Below the pieces are notes generated by a model. The model was not told the DNA's origin and made no database searches. It saw nothing but the letters and a program-made list of their open reading frames with translations. This document shows, piece by piece, positions 668 to 6,085 of a DNA stretch of 64,000 bases; position 1 is the stretch's first letter; each line of letters opens with the position of its first letter. Location: assembly GCA_963746845.1 (NCBI GenBank), contig CAVVCZ010000002.1, forward strand, positions 192,001-256,000, read 5' to 3'. A program made the position numbers and the translations under genes. The DNA is from an uncultured Chloroflexia bacterium (GTDB lineage: Bacteria; Chloroflexota; Limnocylindria; Limnocylindrales; CSP1-4).

Positions 668-1042
668 ATGGACGACGACCTCGTCCGGGACGGCCGGTAC
701 GCCCGGCTGGAGATCCGCGGTCACCGTTCGGGTCTCCCGCGTCCGGTGACCGTCGGGTTCGTGGACCGGCCGGACGGCACCATCGTCGTCGCGGCGCGCG
801 CCGACCAGACGGCCTGGGCCCGGAACCTCGAGGCCGACCCGGAGGTCCTCGTCACGATCGGGACCGACGCGGTGCGGGCGACGGCCGAGCTGCTGGCAGA
901 TGACGACCCGCGCCGGCCGGCAGCGATCCGCGACCTGATCCTGCGCTATGGCACGCCGTCCGAGGGCCTGGGTCGGGGCCCGGTGTTCGTCCTCACGACC
1001 GCGCCGCCCGCCGGCGACCCCGATCACGCCGCGGCCGGGTGA
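668..1042 (+). CDS. Deazaflavin (F420)-dependent nitroreductase-family oxidoreductase (DUF385-like)
   Basis: LEIRGHRSGLPRPVTV and WARNLEADPEV match the split-barrel nitroreductase family pattern. Confidence 0.75.
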   Translation: MDDDLVRDGRYARLEIRGHRSGLPRPVTVGFVDRPDGTIVVAARADQTAWARNLEADPEVLVTIGTDAVRATAELLADDDPRRPAAIRDLILRYGTPSEGLGRGPVFVLTTAPPAGDPDHAAAG

Positions 1043-1046
1043 TCCA

Positions 1047-1114
1047 TACGTCATCCGTCGCACGAACCACCGTACGTCCGGACGATGGCCGGACGGGACC
1101 TCGACCGGCAGCAT
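1047..1114 (+). promoter_or_regulatory. Promoter P1: box TACGTCATCCGTCGCA (1047-1062), CGATG (1083), -10 CAGCAT (1109-1114)
   Basis: Same elements and spacing as P2-P4. Confidence 0.6.
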
Positions 1115-1156
1115 GTGAACCACGGCACCTGCCGATCGCCCTCAAGGGATGGACCG

Positions 1157-1279
1157 ATGGACCCGCTCGGGACCCTGATCGTGTCACTGGGAACGCTGAT
1201 CGTCCTCGATCTCGCTGCGCTTCAGCTCGGCGGACCGCGACGCTCGCGGAACCGATCCCGAAGCGTTCGCTCGCGCTGA
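1157..1279 (+). CDS. 40-aa micro-protein, one transmembrane helix plus Arg/Ser-rich tail
   Basis: MDPLGTLIVSLGTLIVLDLAALQLGGPRRSRNRSRSVRSR; purine-rich AAGGGA/GGA upstream; lies directly downstream of P1. Confidence 0.6.
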   Translation: MDPLGTLIVSLGTLIVLDLAALQLGGPRRSRNRSRSVRSR

Positions 1280-1415
1280 CGGTCGTTCCTCCACGACCGG
1301 CACAACTGAATAGACGCCGACCCTCGAGGGTCTCCTCCCTCCTCCCCCTCGATCGCCGGCCGACCTGATCGAAGCGGCGCCGCCCTCCTCCTCCCGGCGC
1401 CGCTTCGACGTTTCT
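1280..1415 (+). ncRNA. Putative 3'-UTR-derived sRNA with three CCUCC-loop hairpins
   Basis: Hairpins at 1280-1299 (loop TCCTCC), 1324-1352 (loop TCTCCTCCCTCCTCC) and 1369-1408 (perfect 14-bp stem, loop CCCTCCTCCTCC, then CGTTTCT); ACAACTGAATAG at 1302-1313. Confidence 0.6.
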
Positions 1416-1577
1416 CCCGCCTTCCGTTCGCGACCGAGAACCGTTTCGTCGTCGGCGACTCCATGATGTCCGACGGGGCCGTGACGGCCGGCAACGACAA
1501 GCCACCACACGACGTTCCCCGGCGGCGGTTCCCGGACCCGGCACCGGGTCGCCGCCGGCACATCTTCCCGCCGCCGC

Positions 1578-1645
1578 TACGTCATTCGGCGTACGTCGGT
1601 CGCCGTCGTCCGTCGGTGGTCGTCGTGGGGCACCTGTCCTAGCGT
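1578..1645 (+). promoter_or_regulatory. Promoter P2: box TACGTCATTCGGCGTA (1578-1593), CGGTG (1614), -10 TAGCGT (1640-1645)
   Basis: Palindromic TACG-N8-CGTA; spacing conserved with P1, P3 and P4. Confidence 0.65.
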
Positions 1646-1694
1646 CTCGTCGTTGGATCCGTGGCAGCCAGAACCCGACCAACCCCTACCCATG

Positions 1695-1727
1695 ACAACT
1701 GAAGAACAACCGAAGAACAACCGAAGA
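1695..1727 (+). repeat. Tandem 11-bp repeat ACAACTGAAGA-ACAACCGAAGA-ACAACCGAAGA (copy A)
   Basis: Read directly; identical to 3133-3165. Confidence 0.95.
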
Positions 1728-1742
1728 GCGTTGCAGCAGCCA

Positions 1743-1780
1743 AGCGGCCGGACTGTCGGATCCACGACGGGCCGGTCGTT
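1743..1780 (+). terminator. Hairpin ending the P2 transcript (possibly bidirectional with DUF1028)
   Basis: AGCGGCCGG/CCGGTCGTT outer stem and CTGTCG/CGACGG inner stem. Confidence 0.5.
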
Positions 1781-1796
1781 CGGTGTCCGGCGCGGA

Positions 1797-2687
1797 TCAG
1801 CCCTCGATCAGGGCCCGCGCTCCGTCCACCAGCTCCGGCTGGGCGCGGCTCGCAGCGAGCCGGCGCAGAAACTCGGGCCAGCGCGGGTTGACCGCGGTCG
1901 CCTCGGCGAGCAACGCCTGCGCCGGCTCGACCAGTCCGGCGCTCGCCATCCCGATCGCTCGCCAGACGAGGACCTGGGCGTCGCCGGGGGCGAGCCGCGA
2001 GGCCTCCTCCGACGCGCGACCGGCGCCTTCCGCGTCACCGGACCGGCCCAGCTCCTCGGCCCGGTCGAGCGCCTCGAACCCGAGCTGGAGCCGGGTCAGC
2101 CGCTCGAGCTCGTCGAGGGGCGCCGGATGATCGTCGACCCGGATGTCGAACGACCGCGTCCAGCCCGGCTCGTCCGGCGTCCCGGACACGATCAGGGCGG
2201 CCGCCTGCCGGCCCCGGATGTCGCCGCCCTCCCGTTCCGCCGCGCGGAGCGCCGCGAGCAGGCGATCCACGAACGAGACCGCCGGCTCCGCCCAGGCGGC
2301 GAGCATCGCCGCGGGGACCGTCGAGCGCTCCATCATGTTGGCCTGGATCGCCACCCCGTCGGCGGTGAGGTGGCCCGCCGCCTCGACGCACGCCGAGCCG
2401 GTCCAGGAGGCCGTCCGGCCGCTCGCGTCGACGATCCCGACCTGGCGGACCTCGCGACCCGGGTCCGCGTCGAGCACCCGGCCCAGCGCGTCCGCTGCCG
2501 CGACGCCGGCCCGCAGGAGGGCCAGGCCGTCCGGGCCATGCGCGATCTGCGTGAACGACTGGGTGGCGACGGCCCCGACCCCGGATTCCATCCACGGCAC
2601 TGAGGCGCCGACGAACGGCCAGCACGTCTGGACGGCGACACCGAAGCGCCCCGTCGCGGGATCGCGGGCGACGATCGAGTAGGTCAT
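1797..2687 (-). CDS. DUF1028 (Ntn-hydrolase-like) domain protein with C-terminal TPR-like helices
   Basis: MTYSIVARDPATGRFGVAVQT, GVGAVATQS, RQVGIVD, GGDIRGRQAAAL and DIRVDDHPAPLDELERL; GGAGG RBS before ATG 2687. Confidence 0.88.
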   Translation of the reverse strand: MTYSIVARDPATGRFGVAVQTCWPFVGASVPWMESGVGAVATQSFTQIAHGPDGLALLRAGVAAADALGRVLDADPGREVRQVGIVDASGRTASWTGSACVEAAGHLTADGVAIQANMMERSTVPAAMLAAWAEPAVSFVDRLLAALRAAEREGGDIRGRQAAALIVSGTPDEPGWTRSFDIRVDDHPAPLDELERLTRLQLGFEALDRAEELGRSGDAEGAGRASEEASRLAPGDAQVLVWRAIGMASAGLVEPAQALLAEATAVNPRWPEFLRRLAASRAQPELVDGARALIEG

Positions 2688-2745
2688 CTGGCTGCCTCCG
2701 CTGGGCGCTCGTGCGTCGAACGACCCGTCATGAACGGCCCTCGCA

Positions 2746-2812
2746 TACGTCATCGGTCGTAACGCGGCCATGGCAGGTGCCGATGCCGCCGCCGTCCGGC
2801 CGGTCCTAGTGT
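2746..2812 (+). promoter_or_regulatory. Promoter P3: box TACGTCATCGGTCGTA (2746-2761), CGATG (2781), -10 TAGTGT (2807-2812)
   Basis: Palindromic TACG-N8-CGTA; conserved spacing. Confidence 0.65.
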
Positions 2813-2868
2813 GCTCGCACGAGGACCGCAAGGGCCGGTCCACCGCTCGGAGAACGGAGTCGCACACC

Positions 2869-3081
2869 ATGGACAGCCAGCAGGTCATGCATGAGGCAGG
2901 AGACCGGGGCCGTCGTGGGTGCCTCGTGGAGGGATGTCCGTGCAAGGACGCCAGGATCGTCTCCATGCGCCGGGCCGCCTTCTTCGCCGCCTGGGCCCGG
3001 AACCGGGGCGAGACCGCCGACCGCTTCGTCTCGCCTGAGGCCGGCTGGCGGATCCCGACCCTCATTCCCTCGGCCGCCTGA
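2869..3081 (+). CDS. 70-aa small protein with H...CLVEGCPC putative metal-binding motif
   Basis: GGAG RBS at 2856-2859; MDSQQVMHEAGDRGRRGCLVEGCPCKDARIVSMRRAAFFAAWA...; lies downstream of P3. Confidence 0.65.
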   Translation: MDSQQVMHEAGDRGRRGCLVEGCPCKDARIVSMRRAAFFAAWARNRGETADRFVSPEAGWRIPTLIPSAA

Positions 3082-3132
3082 CGAATTCTCAGAGACCTCG
3101 CAGACGACGACCGGACGATCGCCCTGCGTCCG

Positions 3133-3165
3133 ACAACTGAAGAACAACCGAAGAACAACCGAAGA
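3133..3165 (+). repeat. Tandem 11-bp repeat 3x ACAACYGAAGA (copy B) in the 3' UTR of the 70-aa gene
   Basis: Read directly; 34 bp (3132-3165) identical to 1694-1727. Confidence 0.95.
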
Positions 3166-3178
3166 CGCCACTCCCGAA

Positions 3179-3208
3179 ACGACCGGCCGCCGCCAGCGAG
3201 CCGGTCGT
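3179..3208 (+). terminator. Hairpin ending the P3 transcript
   Basis: ACGACCGGC/GCCGGTCGT stem; shares the GCCGGTCGT arm with the 1743-1780 hairpin. Confidence 0.5.
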
Positions 3209-3275
3209 CTCAATTCCCGGCCCCGCGGGAGCCGTCGAGACGGCCCGGGCGGTCGGCCGGGTGACCCGGGGCGGC

Positions 3276-3342
3276 ATCGTCATCCGTCGCCCCGTGGCGT
3301 CGCCGTCCGCCGATGGTCGCCCGCGTGGTCGCCGACGAGGAT
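3276..3342 (+). promoter_or_regulatory. Promoter P4: degenerate box ATCGTCATCCGTCGCC (3276-3291), CGATG (3311), -10 GAGGAT (3337-3342)
   Basis: 13-bp core CGTCATCCGTCGC identical to P1; conserved spacing. Confidence 0.55.
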
Positions 3343-3389
3343 CAGGGTCGCCAGCAACCGCCATCCGGCGCCACTCGGAGACGACCCAC

Positions 3390-3833
3390 ATGTTTCGCGG
3401 ATCCCGCCTCGCGGCCTCGTTCCTGCTCGTCCTCACCGGTCTGACCGCTCTCGCGACCGCCCTGTTCGTCGTGCCGGCGGCCGTCGGGGCCGGCGGCGGG
3501 CGGTGGCTGACGCCGGTCGTCCTCTTCCTCGCGATCCTCCACTTCGTCGCGCTCGTCGGCATCTACCGCGGGCGTGACTGGGGCCGCAACCTCGCGGTGT
3601 TCGTGGCCGAGCTCGGCGGCGGGATCGCGATCCTCGGCGCCATCTCGCTGCTCACCGGTGCCCATCCGTTCGGCGCCGACAGCGCGACGGGCCTCGGCCT
3701 GATCGCCTGGTCCGCGGGTGTCTACGCGCTGCTCGGGATCGCGGCCGGCCGGATCCCGGTCCTGTCGCGACTGACCCCGATCGAGCGCCGCCGGGTCGTC
3801 TTCGGCCCGAGCTTCGCCGGCATCGTCCGCTGA
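3390..3833 (+). CDS. Small integral membrane protein (about 4 TM)
   Basis: GGAG RBS at 3377; ATG 3390; four hydrophobic segments. Confidence 0.75.
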   Translation: MFRGSRLAASFLLVLTGLTALATALFVVPAAVGAGGGRWLTPVVLFLAILHFVALVGIYRGRDWGRNLAVFVAELGGGIAILGAISLLTGAHPFGADSATGLGLIAWSAGVYALLGIAAGRIPVLSRLTPIERRRVVFGPSFAGIVR

Positions 3834-3892
3834 CGCGAGGTGCGGCGCGGCCGGCCGGGGGGGACCGGGCCGGTGCCCCGTAGACTCGGCGG

Positions 3893-4276
3893 GTGACCGA
3901 CGAGCCGACCCTCTTCGACGCCGCGGGCGGCATGCCGTTCTTCGAGGCCCTCGTCGGGCGGTTCTACGAGGGCGTGGCGGTCGACCCGGTCCTGCGACCG
4001 CTCTACCCGGAGCCGGATCTTGCCGGCGCTCGTCACCGGCTGACCCTGTTCCTCGCCCAGTACTGGGGCGGCCCGACCACCTACGACGCCGAGCGTGGTC
4101 ACCCACGGCTCCGGATGCGCCACGCGCCGTTCGCCATCGGTCCGACGGAGCGTGATGCGTGGCTCGTCCGGATGCGCGAGGCGGTCACCTGGTCCGAGCC
4201 GCCGGCGCCGGTCGCCGCGCGGCTCCTCGCCTACTTCGACATGGCGGCGGAGGCGATGCGCAACCGCGACGGGTAG
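3893..4276 (+). CDS. glbO: Group II truncated haemoglobin (GlbO-like)
   Basis: LFLAQYWGGPTTY and RGHPRLRMRHAPFAIG; leaderless, TAGACT 6 nt upstream of GTG. Confidence 0.9.
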   Translation: MTDEPTLFDAAGGMPFFEALVGRFYEGVAVDPVLRPLYPEPDLAGARHRLTLFLAQYWGGPTTYDAERGHPRLRMRHAPFAIGPTERDAWLVRMREAVTWSEPPAPVAARLLAYFDMAAEAMRNRDG

Positions 4277-4315: not shown

Positions 4316-6085
4316 TTGACGGAGGCGGACCAGGAGCCATCGACCCCGGCCGCCGCGACCGGCCGACCGCCGAGGGAGCGCGGCAAGACCGTCCACGGTG
4401 AGCCGGCGAACGCGGGGCATCGCGTCCTCGCCCCGGACGATGCCGAGGTCGAGGCCTATCTCGAGACCGCCCTCAAGGCGCCGATTCCCACCCGCTCGGC
4501 CGACGACCGCCCCGACGTCGGTGAGCCCGATTCGGTCGTCGTCCTCGACTTCGGCAGCCAGTTCGCCCAGCTCATCGCCCGCCGCGTCCGCGAGCTCAAC
4601 GTCTACTCCGAGCTCATCCCCCACGACACGCCGTGGGCCGAGATCGAGCGCCGCCGGCCCAAGGCGATCATCCTCTCCGGCGGCCCGAACTCCGTGTACG
4701 ACACCGACGCCCCGAAGCCCGACGCGGGCGTCTGGTCCGGCCGGATCCCGGTCCTCGGGATCTGCTACGGCGCCCAGCTGATGGCGAGCGAGCTCGGCGG
4801 CGACGTCGTCGCGACCTCGAAGCGCGAGTACGGGCCGGCAACCGTGACCATCACGGACGCGGACGGGCTGTTCACCGGCCTCGATCGCGACCAGCCCGTC
4901 TGGATGAGCCATGGCGATTCGATCACCCGGCTCCCCGAGGGCTTCCGCTCGACCGCCCAGACCGGCTCGTCGCCGTTCGCCGGTCTCGCCGCCCCGGACC
5001 GGAACCTGTACGGGATCCAGTTCCATCCCGAGGTGGTCCACACCCCGGCCGGCCGCGACGTGCTGCGCAACTTCGTGCTCGGCATCGCCGGTGCCTCGCC
5101 GACCTGGACGCCAGCGAACTTCATCGAGCAGACGGTCGCCGAGATCCGTGGGCGGGTCGATGCGCACGCGGCGGCCACGGGCTCCGACGGGCTCGTGATC
5201 TGCGCCTTGTCCGGCGGCGTGGACTCCGCGGTCGCGGCGGCTCTCGTCCATCGGGCGGTCGGGGATCGGCTGACCTGCATCTACGTCGACCACGGGCTGA
5301 TGCGCAAGAAGGAGTCGGAGCTTCTGCGCGAGACGTTCGCCGAGCACCTCGGGATGCGTCTCGTGATGGTCGACGCGCGCGAGCGGTTCCTCGCCCGGCT
5401 CGCCGGTGTCGAGGACCCGGAGCAGAAGCGGAAGATCATCGGGGACGAGTTCATCCGGGTCTTCGAGGAGGAGTCGCAGAAGCTCGGGCGGATCGACTTC
5501 CTGACCCAGGGGACGCTCTATCCGGACGTCATCGAGAGCGCGACCGCCGAGACGAAGGCGGCCCAGAAGATCAAGACCCACCACAACGTCGGCGGGCTGC
5601 CGGCCGACCTGCGGTTCCAGCTGATCGAGCCGCTCCGGTATCTGTTCAAGGACGAGGTGCGCGCGGTCGGGCTGGAGCTCGGCCTGCCCGATGCGATCGT
5701 CCTCCGCCAGCCCTTCCCCGGACCCGGTCTGGCGATCCGGATCATCGGCGAGGTCACCGCGGAGCGGCTCGACACCCTTCGCGAGGCCGATTGGATCGTC
5801 ATCGACGAGATCAAGGGGGCCGGGCTGTACCGCTCGCTGTGGCAGTCGTTCGCGATCCTCACGCCGGTGCGGAGCGTCGGCGTGATGGGCGACGGCCGGA
5901 CCTACGCGAACGTCGTCGCCGTCCGGGCGGTCACGTCGGAGGACGGGATGACCGCCGACTGGGCGAAGCTCCCGTACGATGTGCTCGCAACGATCTCCAG
6001 CCGGATCGTCAACGAGGTCGCGGGCGTCAACCGGGTCGTGTACGACATCTCGTCGAAGCCCCCCGCCACGATCGAGTGGGAGTAG
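4316..6085 (+). CDS. guaA: GMP synthase (glutamine-hydrolysing) with ~70-aa N-terminal extension
   Basis: [33 protein letters not shown] and [14 protein letters not shown]; AGGAGG before TTG. Confidence 0.97.

Follow-up and report, generated by a model that had tools for sequence, protein, structure and literature searches.

A conserved promoter architecture upstream of four small units between guaB3 and guaA points to a probable small regulon in an uncultured Chloroflexota lineage

The guaB3-guaA interval and its four promoters

We examined a window of 64,000 nucleotides (nt) from an uncultured soil bacterium of the Chloroflexota, CSP1-4-type lineage (GenBank assembly GCA_963746845.1, contig CAVVCZ010000002.1, positions 192,001 to 256,000), in which four short units with similar promoters, here called the cassette, lie between guaB3 and guaA. 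Positions without a prefix refer to this window; all others are given as genome, contig, and position, with the present genome (3.56 Mb, 71% G+C, 12 contigs) designated G000. According to Pfam, the window opens with an IMPDH-family gene (1-654), which an earlier model-made reading of the letters alone (the sequence-only reading) had named guaB3, and, at 668-1042, a gene resembling F420H2-dependent reductases. Next come unit 1, unit 2, a DUF1028+TPR gene on the minus strand (1797-2687), unit 3, and unit 4, and 3' of unit 4 lie a truncated globin gene (3893-4276) and guaA (4316-6085).

Each unit is preceded by a distal box, a proximal CGRTG element, and a -10-like xAxxxT hexamer. The coordinates that the sequence-only reading gave for these elements were all borne out when we read the window:

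1047-1062, +, unit 1 distal box TACGTCATCCGTCGCA, found by reading the window and kept in orthologous loci
1083-1088, +, unit 1 proximal element CGATGG, whose ATGGCC resembles a -35 hexamer weakly and stands 18 nt ahead of the -10
1109-1114, +, unit 1 -10-like hexamer CAGCAT
1578-1593, +, unit 2 distal box TACGTCATTCGGCGTA, a TACG-N8-CGTA palindrome
1614-1619, +, unit 2 proximal element CGGTGG
1640-1645, +, unit 2 -10-like hexamer TAGCGT
2746-2761, +, unit 3 distal box TACGTCATCGGTCGTA, palindromic
2781-2786, +, unit 3 proximal element CGATGC
2807-2812, +, unit 3 -10-like hexamer TAGTGT
3276-3291, +, unit 4 distal box ATCGTCATCCGTCGCC
3311-3316, +, unit 4 proximal element CGATGG
3337-3342, +, unit 4 -10-like hexamer GAGGAT

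The gaps between the box end and the hexamer are 46, 46, 45, and 45 nt in units 1 to 4, and the distance from CGRTG to the hexamer is 26 nt in all four units. A degenerate form of the box, WWCGTCATYSGKCGYM, has four matches in the 64-kb window against 0.51 expected, a count reached by none of 100 shuffles; the whole genome holds six matches, four of which are those in this window. The hexamers at the -35 position (ATGGCC, GTGGTC, ATGCCG, and ATGGTC) share two or three of six positions with TTGACA, and a TTGACA-like -35 element at an upstream spacing of 16 to 18 bp is not present in the four cassette promoters. On the opposite strand of the unit 4 box region, a weak match to the ZMP/ZTP riboswitch (3236-3300, minus strand; 19.4 versus 39 bits; E = 4.9) is most likely due to chance.

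Conservation and spacing in related genomes

A DNA search of 41 related genomes located the interval in 23 of the 24 other genomes of the same genus, and 29 orthologous loci were compared after a duplicate locus (L002) and an unrelated locus (L028) had been set aside. The sequence-only reading had called for a synteny check of the interval, and the gene order (guaB3, F420-type reductase, unit 1, unit 2, DUF1028 where present, unit 3, unit 4, globin, and guaA) is indeed kept in 29/29 loci. The Cys protein encoded by unit 3 occurs in 28/29 loci and the pep40 peptide encoded by unit 1 in 27/29, the absences falling at contig ends, and TM4, the membrane protein of unit 4, occurs in 15/29. The DUF1028+TPR gene, found in only 14/29 related loci, seems to have been inserted between the cassette units. 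Throughout the orthologous loci, the boxes are retained before each unit while the flanking sequence diverges.

For the spacing analysis, we assembled 75 promoter instances from 30 genomes, having first removed by hand 10 pattern matches inside coding sequence. Between the end of the box and C[GCA]RTG, 38 instances have 20 nt and 31 have 19 nt, and the other 6 depart from both values. The A2 and T6 of the -10-like hexamer lie exactly 26 nt after CGRTG in 59/75 instances and within 1 nt of that distance in 72/75, against a background of 0.018 per position. No columns other than those of TACGTCAT..G.CG (the box), CGATG, and the hexamer's A and T reach 80% conservation when all instances are taken together. 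The hexamer thus has the A2 and T6 of a sigma-70-type -10 at a fixed place, and to judge from the aligned sites, the conservation pattern is that of a primary-sigma -10 with a fixed upstream site and without a canonical -35. Loss of motif and spacing in orthologous loci, together with their occurrence at background frequency, had been named in the sequence-only reading as an outcome that would refute its proposed regulon; both are kept, above background.

A strict form of the box, TACGTCATYSGKCGYA, gave 49 matches in 32/43 genomes of the genus, and its reversed control gave none. In nearly every genome of the genus, these matches are clustered on one contig and one strand. At the order level, the strict box was found in 16/201 genomes, and it was absent from the 42 genomes of a small-genome sister family (0/42). 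The locus set aside above, L028 (G047:C216:22200-28200), has a perfect unit 1-type box at a place without any cassette gene, which could be an extra regulon member of that genome or an assembly fragment.

Beyond the genus, we followed the arrangement through the Cys-protein family, which is present in 26/161 family genomes: 8/8 in genus g1, 10/12 in g5, 3/4 in g22, and single genomes of g26, g29, g30, and g40 (the tally includes the unpublished genome G244). Among the genomes searched, those of g3, g4, g6, g8, g17, and g24 had no member of the family. In g5, g30 (here the unpublished G244), and g40, the Cys-protein gene again lies between an IMPDH-family gene and globin or guaA. Upstream of the Cys-protein copies of other genera are diverged box variants with the common core CAYnnGTC, together with CGRTGG. 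The recurrence of the gene and of box variants at the same interval in other genera indicates that the arrangement is older than the genus. Altogether, the aligned sites support the view that the four cassette sites represent one conserved promoter architecture with fixed spacing, kept across a genus.

A matching site at an unlinked locus

The sequence-only reading had proposed a genome-wide scan for further sites. A weight matrix ranked the cassette boxes first and beyond them yielded one convincing further site and one candidate. The convincing site, next in rank, is a one-mismatch box at G000 C4:377038(-), TACGTCATCTGTCGCA, followed 25 nt on by TTGACG-N18-TAGACT. The composite pattern of box plus promoter at this locus recurs in 14/201 family genomes, with none in the control; by genus, these are 6/9 genomes in g1 plus G000, 6/9 in g5, and 1/9 in g3. 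In relatives, the locus has two tandem boxes 24 bp apart, of which the proximal one belongs to the unit 4 type (ATCGTCATCCG.CG), with 3 nt between its end and the -35.

The region downstream (G000 C4:375500-377100(-)) has the appearance of an attenuator-like leader, in which a consensus promoter is followed by a micro-open reading frame (ORF) and a strong U-tailed terminator; beyond the terminator lie the ABC ATPase gene, a small ORF, and the gene for the ABC-2 permease. The leader micro-ORF encodes 25 to 28 amino acids (aa) and has a Shine-Dalgarno site and a conserved end (...GRS(V/A)PISS), and its peptide is conserved in g5. Because the box at this ABC locus stands upstream of an unmistakable -35/-10 pair, it is a DNA-level upstream element and not itself a -35. 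The presence of the box at an unlinked and conserved locus argues for a trans-acting factor and a small regulon.

The candidate from the same scan of this genome, at C8:24132, consists of a box, a CGATGG after 19 nt, and a downstream gene for a 148-aa membrane protein, which is unrelated to TM4. Motif matches also occur in roughly the first 45 kb of G000 C6, where the sequence is markedly A+T rich relative to the 71% G+C genome; this stretch may have been acquired as a foreign island or wrongly binned with the genome.

A proposed regulon and alternative explanations

We consider it fairly likely that the cassette and the C4 site form a small regulon under a single transcription factor encoded elsewhere; the four neighboring units are probably switched by one regulator. 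Each promoter consists of a 16-bp distal box (core CGTCAT..G.CG; best consensus TACGTCATCCGTCG.A), a proximal CGRTGG 19 to 20 bp beyond the box that abuts or replaces a weak -35, and, 18 bp on, a -10 of the housekeeping type with conservation at A2 and T6 alone. One sequence-specific DNA-binding regulator would bind the box and set the activity of the weak core promoters, most likely by activation. The four tandem units would then be coexpressed: pep40 with its hairpin-bearing 3' untranslated region (3'UTR), an ORF-less RNA, Cys70 with its repeat array, and TM4. The ORF-less RNA of unit 2 would keep only the (ACAAYYGAAGA)n array and the terminator of a former Cys-protein unit, and the regulon would also reach the leader micro-ORF, the terminator, and the ABC-exporter operon elsewhere in the genome. 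Such a regulon would plausibly be membrane or stress related. The idea of one regulator for a suite of small effectors came from the sequence-only reading, and the single architecture and the box used in trans agree with it; the activation and the NarL type that it suggested stay putative.

Several observations weigh against this proposal. A consensus scan of positions 950 to 3950 returned no promoters and no terminators, so the cassette elements are not consensus-like, and the -35 region is noncanonical; the start sites near 1121, 1652, 2819, and 3349 are all predictions. Units 2 and 3 are paralogous, so part of the promoter likeness is inherited and not independently selected. Outside the cassette, this genome yields the one convincing site (C4) and the one candidate (C8:24132), and a looser scan for box plus CGRTG in five genomes gave 6 to 13 matches in each, mostly in apparent coding sequence, by which the regulon could not be extended. 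The genes beside the extra sites (GNAT, ABC, phosphomutase, and glyoxalase) include no regulators. The distance from the box to the -10 is 65 bp at the ABC promoter versus 61 to 62 bp in the cassette, so there is no single fixed geometry, and the consensus strength of the ABC-locus promoter suits repression at least as well as activation.

Repression is the sign that the same cis-elements would have if the factor were a repressor or dual regulator and the boxes were operators silencing the units and the ABC leader until a signal arrives. A promoter of consensus strength (TTGAC-N17-20-TAGACT) would need no activation, the proximal of the two tandem boxes at the relatives' ABC locus ends 3 nt before the -35, and unit 1 has an extra invariant palindrome at its predicted start. 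We nevertheless regard this alternative as unlikely, given that some 60 to 75 bp separate the best-conserved cassette box from the predicted start downstream, which places the box outside the core promoter, and that the core promoters of the cassette have no -35, which is typical of activator-dependent promoters. The strictly fixed spacing of box, CGRTGG, and -10 might instead reflect intrinsic promoter elements that RNA polymerase recognizes itself (by means of an alternative sigma factor or in the manner of an UP element) with no separate regulator, and an extracytoplasmic function sigma gene does adjoin one Cys-protein paralogue in another genus (L061). This is decidedly improbable: the box ends 45 to 46 bp before the -10, too distant for a -35, and at the ABC locus it coexists with a complete housekeeping -35/-10 pair, while the conserved A2 and T6 of the -10 are primary-sigma positions. 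UP elements, moreover, are A/T tracts, and the box, rich in CG dinucleotides, is unlike them.

The conserved stretch could also act as RNA, in which the box would pair with the CGRTG region; it would then be a leader or a 3'-end structure transcribed by read-through from upstream. In unit 3 of this genome, CATCGG of the box is complementary to a downstream CCGATG, but the pairing is broken in orthologues (for example, CATCCG with CCAATG and CATCGG with CCCATG), the unit 3 box sits in a divergent intergenic region, and the ABC-locus box is upstream of a clear -35/-10, all of which makes this explanation very unlikely. It is harder still to credit that the likeness is a relic of the tandem duplication of one ancestral unit, with no present regulatory meaning. 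Units 2 and 3 are demonstrably paralogous, yet units 1 and 4 code for products that are not related, the box is also present at an unlinked locus in three genera, and in 30 genomes the boxes have hardly changed, in contrast to the decaying flanks and even ORFs. Our preference thus remains for one regulator that acts through the box, most likely as an activator.

Candidate regulators and known systems

The sequence-only reading had suggested a NarL-type 7-2-7 site. The NarL heptamer is TACYYMT, and the boxes do not match it (position 4 is G); the TACG-N8-CGTA symmetry occurs only in units 2 and 3. The cassette boxes resemble NarL/LuxR 7-2-7 sites in their length of 16 bp, in the TAC...GTA frame with inverted halves in units 2 and 3, and in their position upstream of the -35, but those of units 1 and 4 are not palindromic. 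Two-component genes were not seen beside any site.

A LuxR-family STAND regulator (LAL, MalT-like) became our lead because of the TCATCC core of the box and the neighboring LAL genes, and we hold it possible, but less likely than not, that a GerE-type protein is the factor that binds the box. MalT sites, in a published account, are built on GGA(T/G)GA and overlap the -35 region of promoters that have no -35 element (PMC7567727). The same paper describes an Actinoplanes MalT site, TCATCC-N5-GGATGA, that overlaps the -35 of 17 promoters and is related to the E. coli MalT box GGGGA(T/G)GAGG (PMC7567727). The MalT/LAL core hexamer (GGA(T/G)GA, or TCATCC) is found in the cassette as an exact TCATCC in units 1 and 4, with TCATTC in unit 2 and TCATCG in unit 3. 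The promoters are alike in the TCATCC core, which is the reverse complement of GGATGA, and in having CGRTGG at the -35 position; they differ in that the palindrome TCATCC-N5-GGATGA is absent here, TCATCC lying 26 bp from CGRTGG. The TCATCC box does not overlap the -35 position but ends 20 bp upstream of it, and the CGRTGG that is found there shares four of six positions with GGATGA.

Several AAA+TPR+GerE genes are present in the genome, one of them directly upstream of guaB3 and another beside a Cys paralogue (C7:19501-19701). The former (G000 C2:187762-190887(+)) encodes a 1,041-aa AAA_16+TPR+GerE protein of the LAL/MalT-like type and lies 1.1 kb before the window start, upstream of the IMPDH-family gene. 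Close orthologues of this LAL gene stand beside the locus in G016, G011, G013, and G057, which with G000 makes 5/43 genomes of the genus, and in the closest relatives, two LAL genes lie in tandem upstream of the IMPDH-family gene. The missing published palindrome, the match of CGRTGG at only four of six positions, and a LAL neighbor in 5/43 genomes all speak against the LAL lead.

Regulons that pair small membrane proteins with small RNAs are known from PhoPQ (MgrB, MgtS, and MgrR) and Cpx (CpxP and the 3'UTR-derived CpxQ). The system proposed here would be like these in that one regulator would drive tiny membrane proteins and RNAs, some of them in the 3'UTRs of small ORFs, and unlike them in that the units are in tandem at a single locus, in an uncultured Chloroflexota lineage. 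Both the Limnocylindria and the CSP1-4-type lineage are abundant but have no cultured members, and among the papers listed in our literature searches, none dealt with promoters, regulators, or small RNAs of these bacteria. With a defined cis-element, a fixed geometry, and a handful of targets, the locus may offer a workable entry to a regulator in a lineage without genetics.

Products of the cassette

The elements downstream of the four predicted starts, with their coordinates, strands, and nature, are as follows:

1123-1134, +, palindrome CGGCA-CC-TGCCG, just after the predicted unit 1 start
1157-1279, +, pep40, a 40-aa single-pass membrane peptide with an Arg-rich tail
1302-1312, +, single repeat-motif copy ACAACTGAATA (ACAACUGAAUA) in the pep40 3'UTR
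1316-1357, +, 3'UTR hairpin with a C/U-rich loop (UCUCCUCCCUCCUC), from the consensus structure
1369-1408, +, terminator-like 14-bp hairpin with a CCCUCCUCCUCC loop, which ends unit 1 and has weak, subthreshold matches to Rfam CcsR1 and ar14
1695-1727, +, three tandem 11-nt repeats ACAACYGAAGA in unit 2, predicted to be unpaired
1728-1793, +, 3' hairpin ending the ORF-less unit 2, from folding; it faces the end of the DUF1028 gene
2869-3081, +, Cys70, a 70-aa protein with invariant C18, C23, and C25
3133-3165, +, three tandem repeats ACAACYGAAGA in the Cys70 3'UTR
3179-3208, +, terminator-like hairpin ACGACCGG...CCGGTCGT, which ends unit 3
3390-3833, +, TM4, a 147-aa membrane protein with four hydrophobic segments

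The ORFs of pep40, Cys70, and TM4 are intact, and the third codon position varies most in each, which indicates that all three are real proteins. Variable sites at codon positions 1, 2, and 3 number 24, 13, and 36 of 39 in pep40, 30, 26, and 51 of 56 in Cys70, and 87, 78, and 123 of 130 in TM4. Homologues of pep40 (148 in the databases) and of Cys70 (321) are labeled hypothetical and come under the names "Candidatus Limnocylindrales bacterium" and "Chloroflexi bacterium," by which the genome is a Limnocylindrales-type Chloroflexota assembly. Contrary to the earlier expectation that standard annotation would miss such products, both are thus already in public sets as "hypothetical protein."

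The pep40 ORF is intact in 28/28 copies, at 39 to 40 aa, and reads MDPLGTLIVSLGTLIVLDLAALQLGG followed by the Arg-rich tail; as a small hydrophobic peptide (40 aa, one hydrophobic segment, and the Arg-rich tail), it shares one trait with the toxins of type I toxin-antitoxin systems. The palindrome at 1123-1134 has four pairs that are invariant in 23 to 25 of 25 sequences, with no compensatory change, and could be a stabilizing 5' hairpin or a second operator. For Cys70, the conserved stretch is KDARIVS..RRAAFFAAWA..HGETA, and a Pfam search found no family at an E value of up to 1. AlphaFold2, run on 41 aligned Cys-protein sequences, gave a mean predicted local distance difference test score of 55, too poor for a fold search, and the ESM Atlas returned only unnamed clusters for Cys70 and TM4. 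When the Cys-family profile was searched against 1.84 billion representatives, 125 matches were obtained, and a Pfam scan of 12 longer ones showed no informative fused domain; a globin "fusion" among the matches looks like read-through into the neighboring gene. TM4 belongs to no family known to Pfam. A second Cys paralogue, without a box, is located at G000 C7:19501-19701(+), divergent from a LAL-type regulator gene (C7:16982-19300(-)), and has the same neighbors in the g22 genome L062.

Unit 2 is a duplicate of the Cys-protein unit 3 and in this genome an ORF-less remnant. Among 19 loci with a recognizable unit 2 box, 8 keep an ORF of 62 to 75 aa, which carries the motif RPIHRAC(V/L)V.GC.C, and 11, this genome included, have lost it. 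All 11 ORF-less loci still show the repeats, and the terminator also remains downstream of the boxes; the retention of this RNA module after ORF loss argues that the RNA part of unit 2 works on its own. The sequence-only reading had described the units as small RNAs and peptides. The small proteins and structured RNAs are real, but unit 2 is not by origin a stand-alone small RNA gene.

That reading had also noted that units 1 to 3 share ACAACYGAA in their 3' parts and end in a hairpin. The shared word stands, as do the hairpins of units 1 and 3, where compensatory changes are seen; the fold of unit 2 is no more stable than those of shuffled sequences (z = -0.04), and relatives have a conserved GAGCGUUGCAGCAGCC plus a stem at the unit 2 3' end. 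In the 3'UTR of Cys70, relatives have two to six ACAAYYGAAGA units, predicted to be unpaired, followed by the terminator hairpin; its nine pairs include three with compensatory change, and G-C replaces A-U in 8/25 sequences. Two hairpins, both with CCUCC-rich loops, are found in the 3'UTR of pep40, and over 21 sequences, 13/25 of their pairs show compensatory changes. In sequence, these loops resemble the ribosomal anti-Shine-Dalgarno sequence.

The CCUCC-rich loop hairpins bring to mind the actinobacterial 6C RNAs and the alphaproteobacterial CcsR/ar14 ("cuckoo") RNAs, from which the present element differs in being embedded in the 3'UTR of a peptide gene and in its Rfam scores, which are far below threshold. 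For the pep40 3'UTR, the gathering thresholds were missed by CcsR1 (17.3 versus 65.3 bits) and ar14 (17.8 versus 58.8 bits), and 6C was not listed. No Rfam family covers the RNA parts of the cassette. The locus therefore yields three conserved families (the 40-aa peptide, the Cys-rich 70-aa protein, and the 4-TM protein) and two RNA modules outside Rfam. Elsewhere in the genome, long-stem CCUCC-loop hairpins have about 20 occurrences, and as a class (stem of at least 8), CCUCC-loop hairpins are no commoner than GGAGG-loop ones (63 versus 63). At G000 C5:356341-356385(-), a gene with no relation to the cassette ends in a hairpin (GAAGCGGCGCC...CCCUCCUCC loop...) that is nearly a copy of the unit 1 terminator.

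The repeat word in SAM-I and rRNA leaders

In the window, ACAACYGAA has seven matches against 0.14 expected, all of them in units 1 to 3. The word is also met outside the cassette. Both of the SAM-I riboswitches that Rfam identifies in the genome (2/2) start 1 to 6 nt after ACAACTGAA, the repeat words in question lying outside the window at G000 C8:11975-11998(-) and C9:28071-28095(-). Here the word occupies the predicted first transcribed bases, after TTGACC-N18-TACGAT and TTGCTC-N17-CACCAT. The junction pattern was found in 42/121 family genomes and 19/39 genera, including genera without the Cys family, with none in the control (the tally includes G244).

The leader of the rRNA operon has a further copy, some 85 nt upstream of the 5' end of 16S, in 52/151 family genomes and 24/49 genera, again with none in the control (this tally includes the unpublished genome G307). 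In the present genome, it is located at G000 C4:1256230-1256339(-), outside the window, where two TTGACA promoters lie upstream of it and a BoxA-like CCTTGACAAC adjoins it. A search of the genome for TCTTCRRTTGT, the repeat's complement, gave no independent site, and a search for Hfq was likewise negative (the assembly is 92% complete).

A word common to the cassette RNA module and to the rRNA and SAM-I leaders hints at one RNA-binding factor for these transcripts, and the arrays may therefore be decoys for its reader. In this scenario, which is speculative and which we hold to be improbable as a whole, the arrays of (ACAAYYGAAGA)2-6 would soak up the factor that reads the word when the regulator fires. 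That factor might be a processing RNase or else a factor of the Nus type, active in elongation or antitermination. A stress signal would in this way be linked both to the synthesis or maturation of rRNA and to the metabolism of sulfur and methyl groups, while the pep40 3'UTR, through its CCUCC loops, would mask Shine-Dalgarno sites.

The rRNA-leader word overlaps the 3' end of GCACCTTGACAAC, which agrees at 8 of 11 positions with GYTCTTTAANA, given as the gammaproteobacterial BoxA consensus in a published account that also shows BoxA acting outside rRNA (PMC5725501). The likeness to BoxA, the NusB/NusE site, thus consists of one ACAAYYGAAGA unit in the rRNA leader that overlaps a BoxA-like element. 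The cassette repeats (GAAGAACAACC) differ in having no U-rich 5' half and no CTTT, and CCTTG precedes the rRNA-leader copy only.

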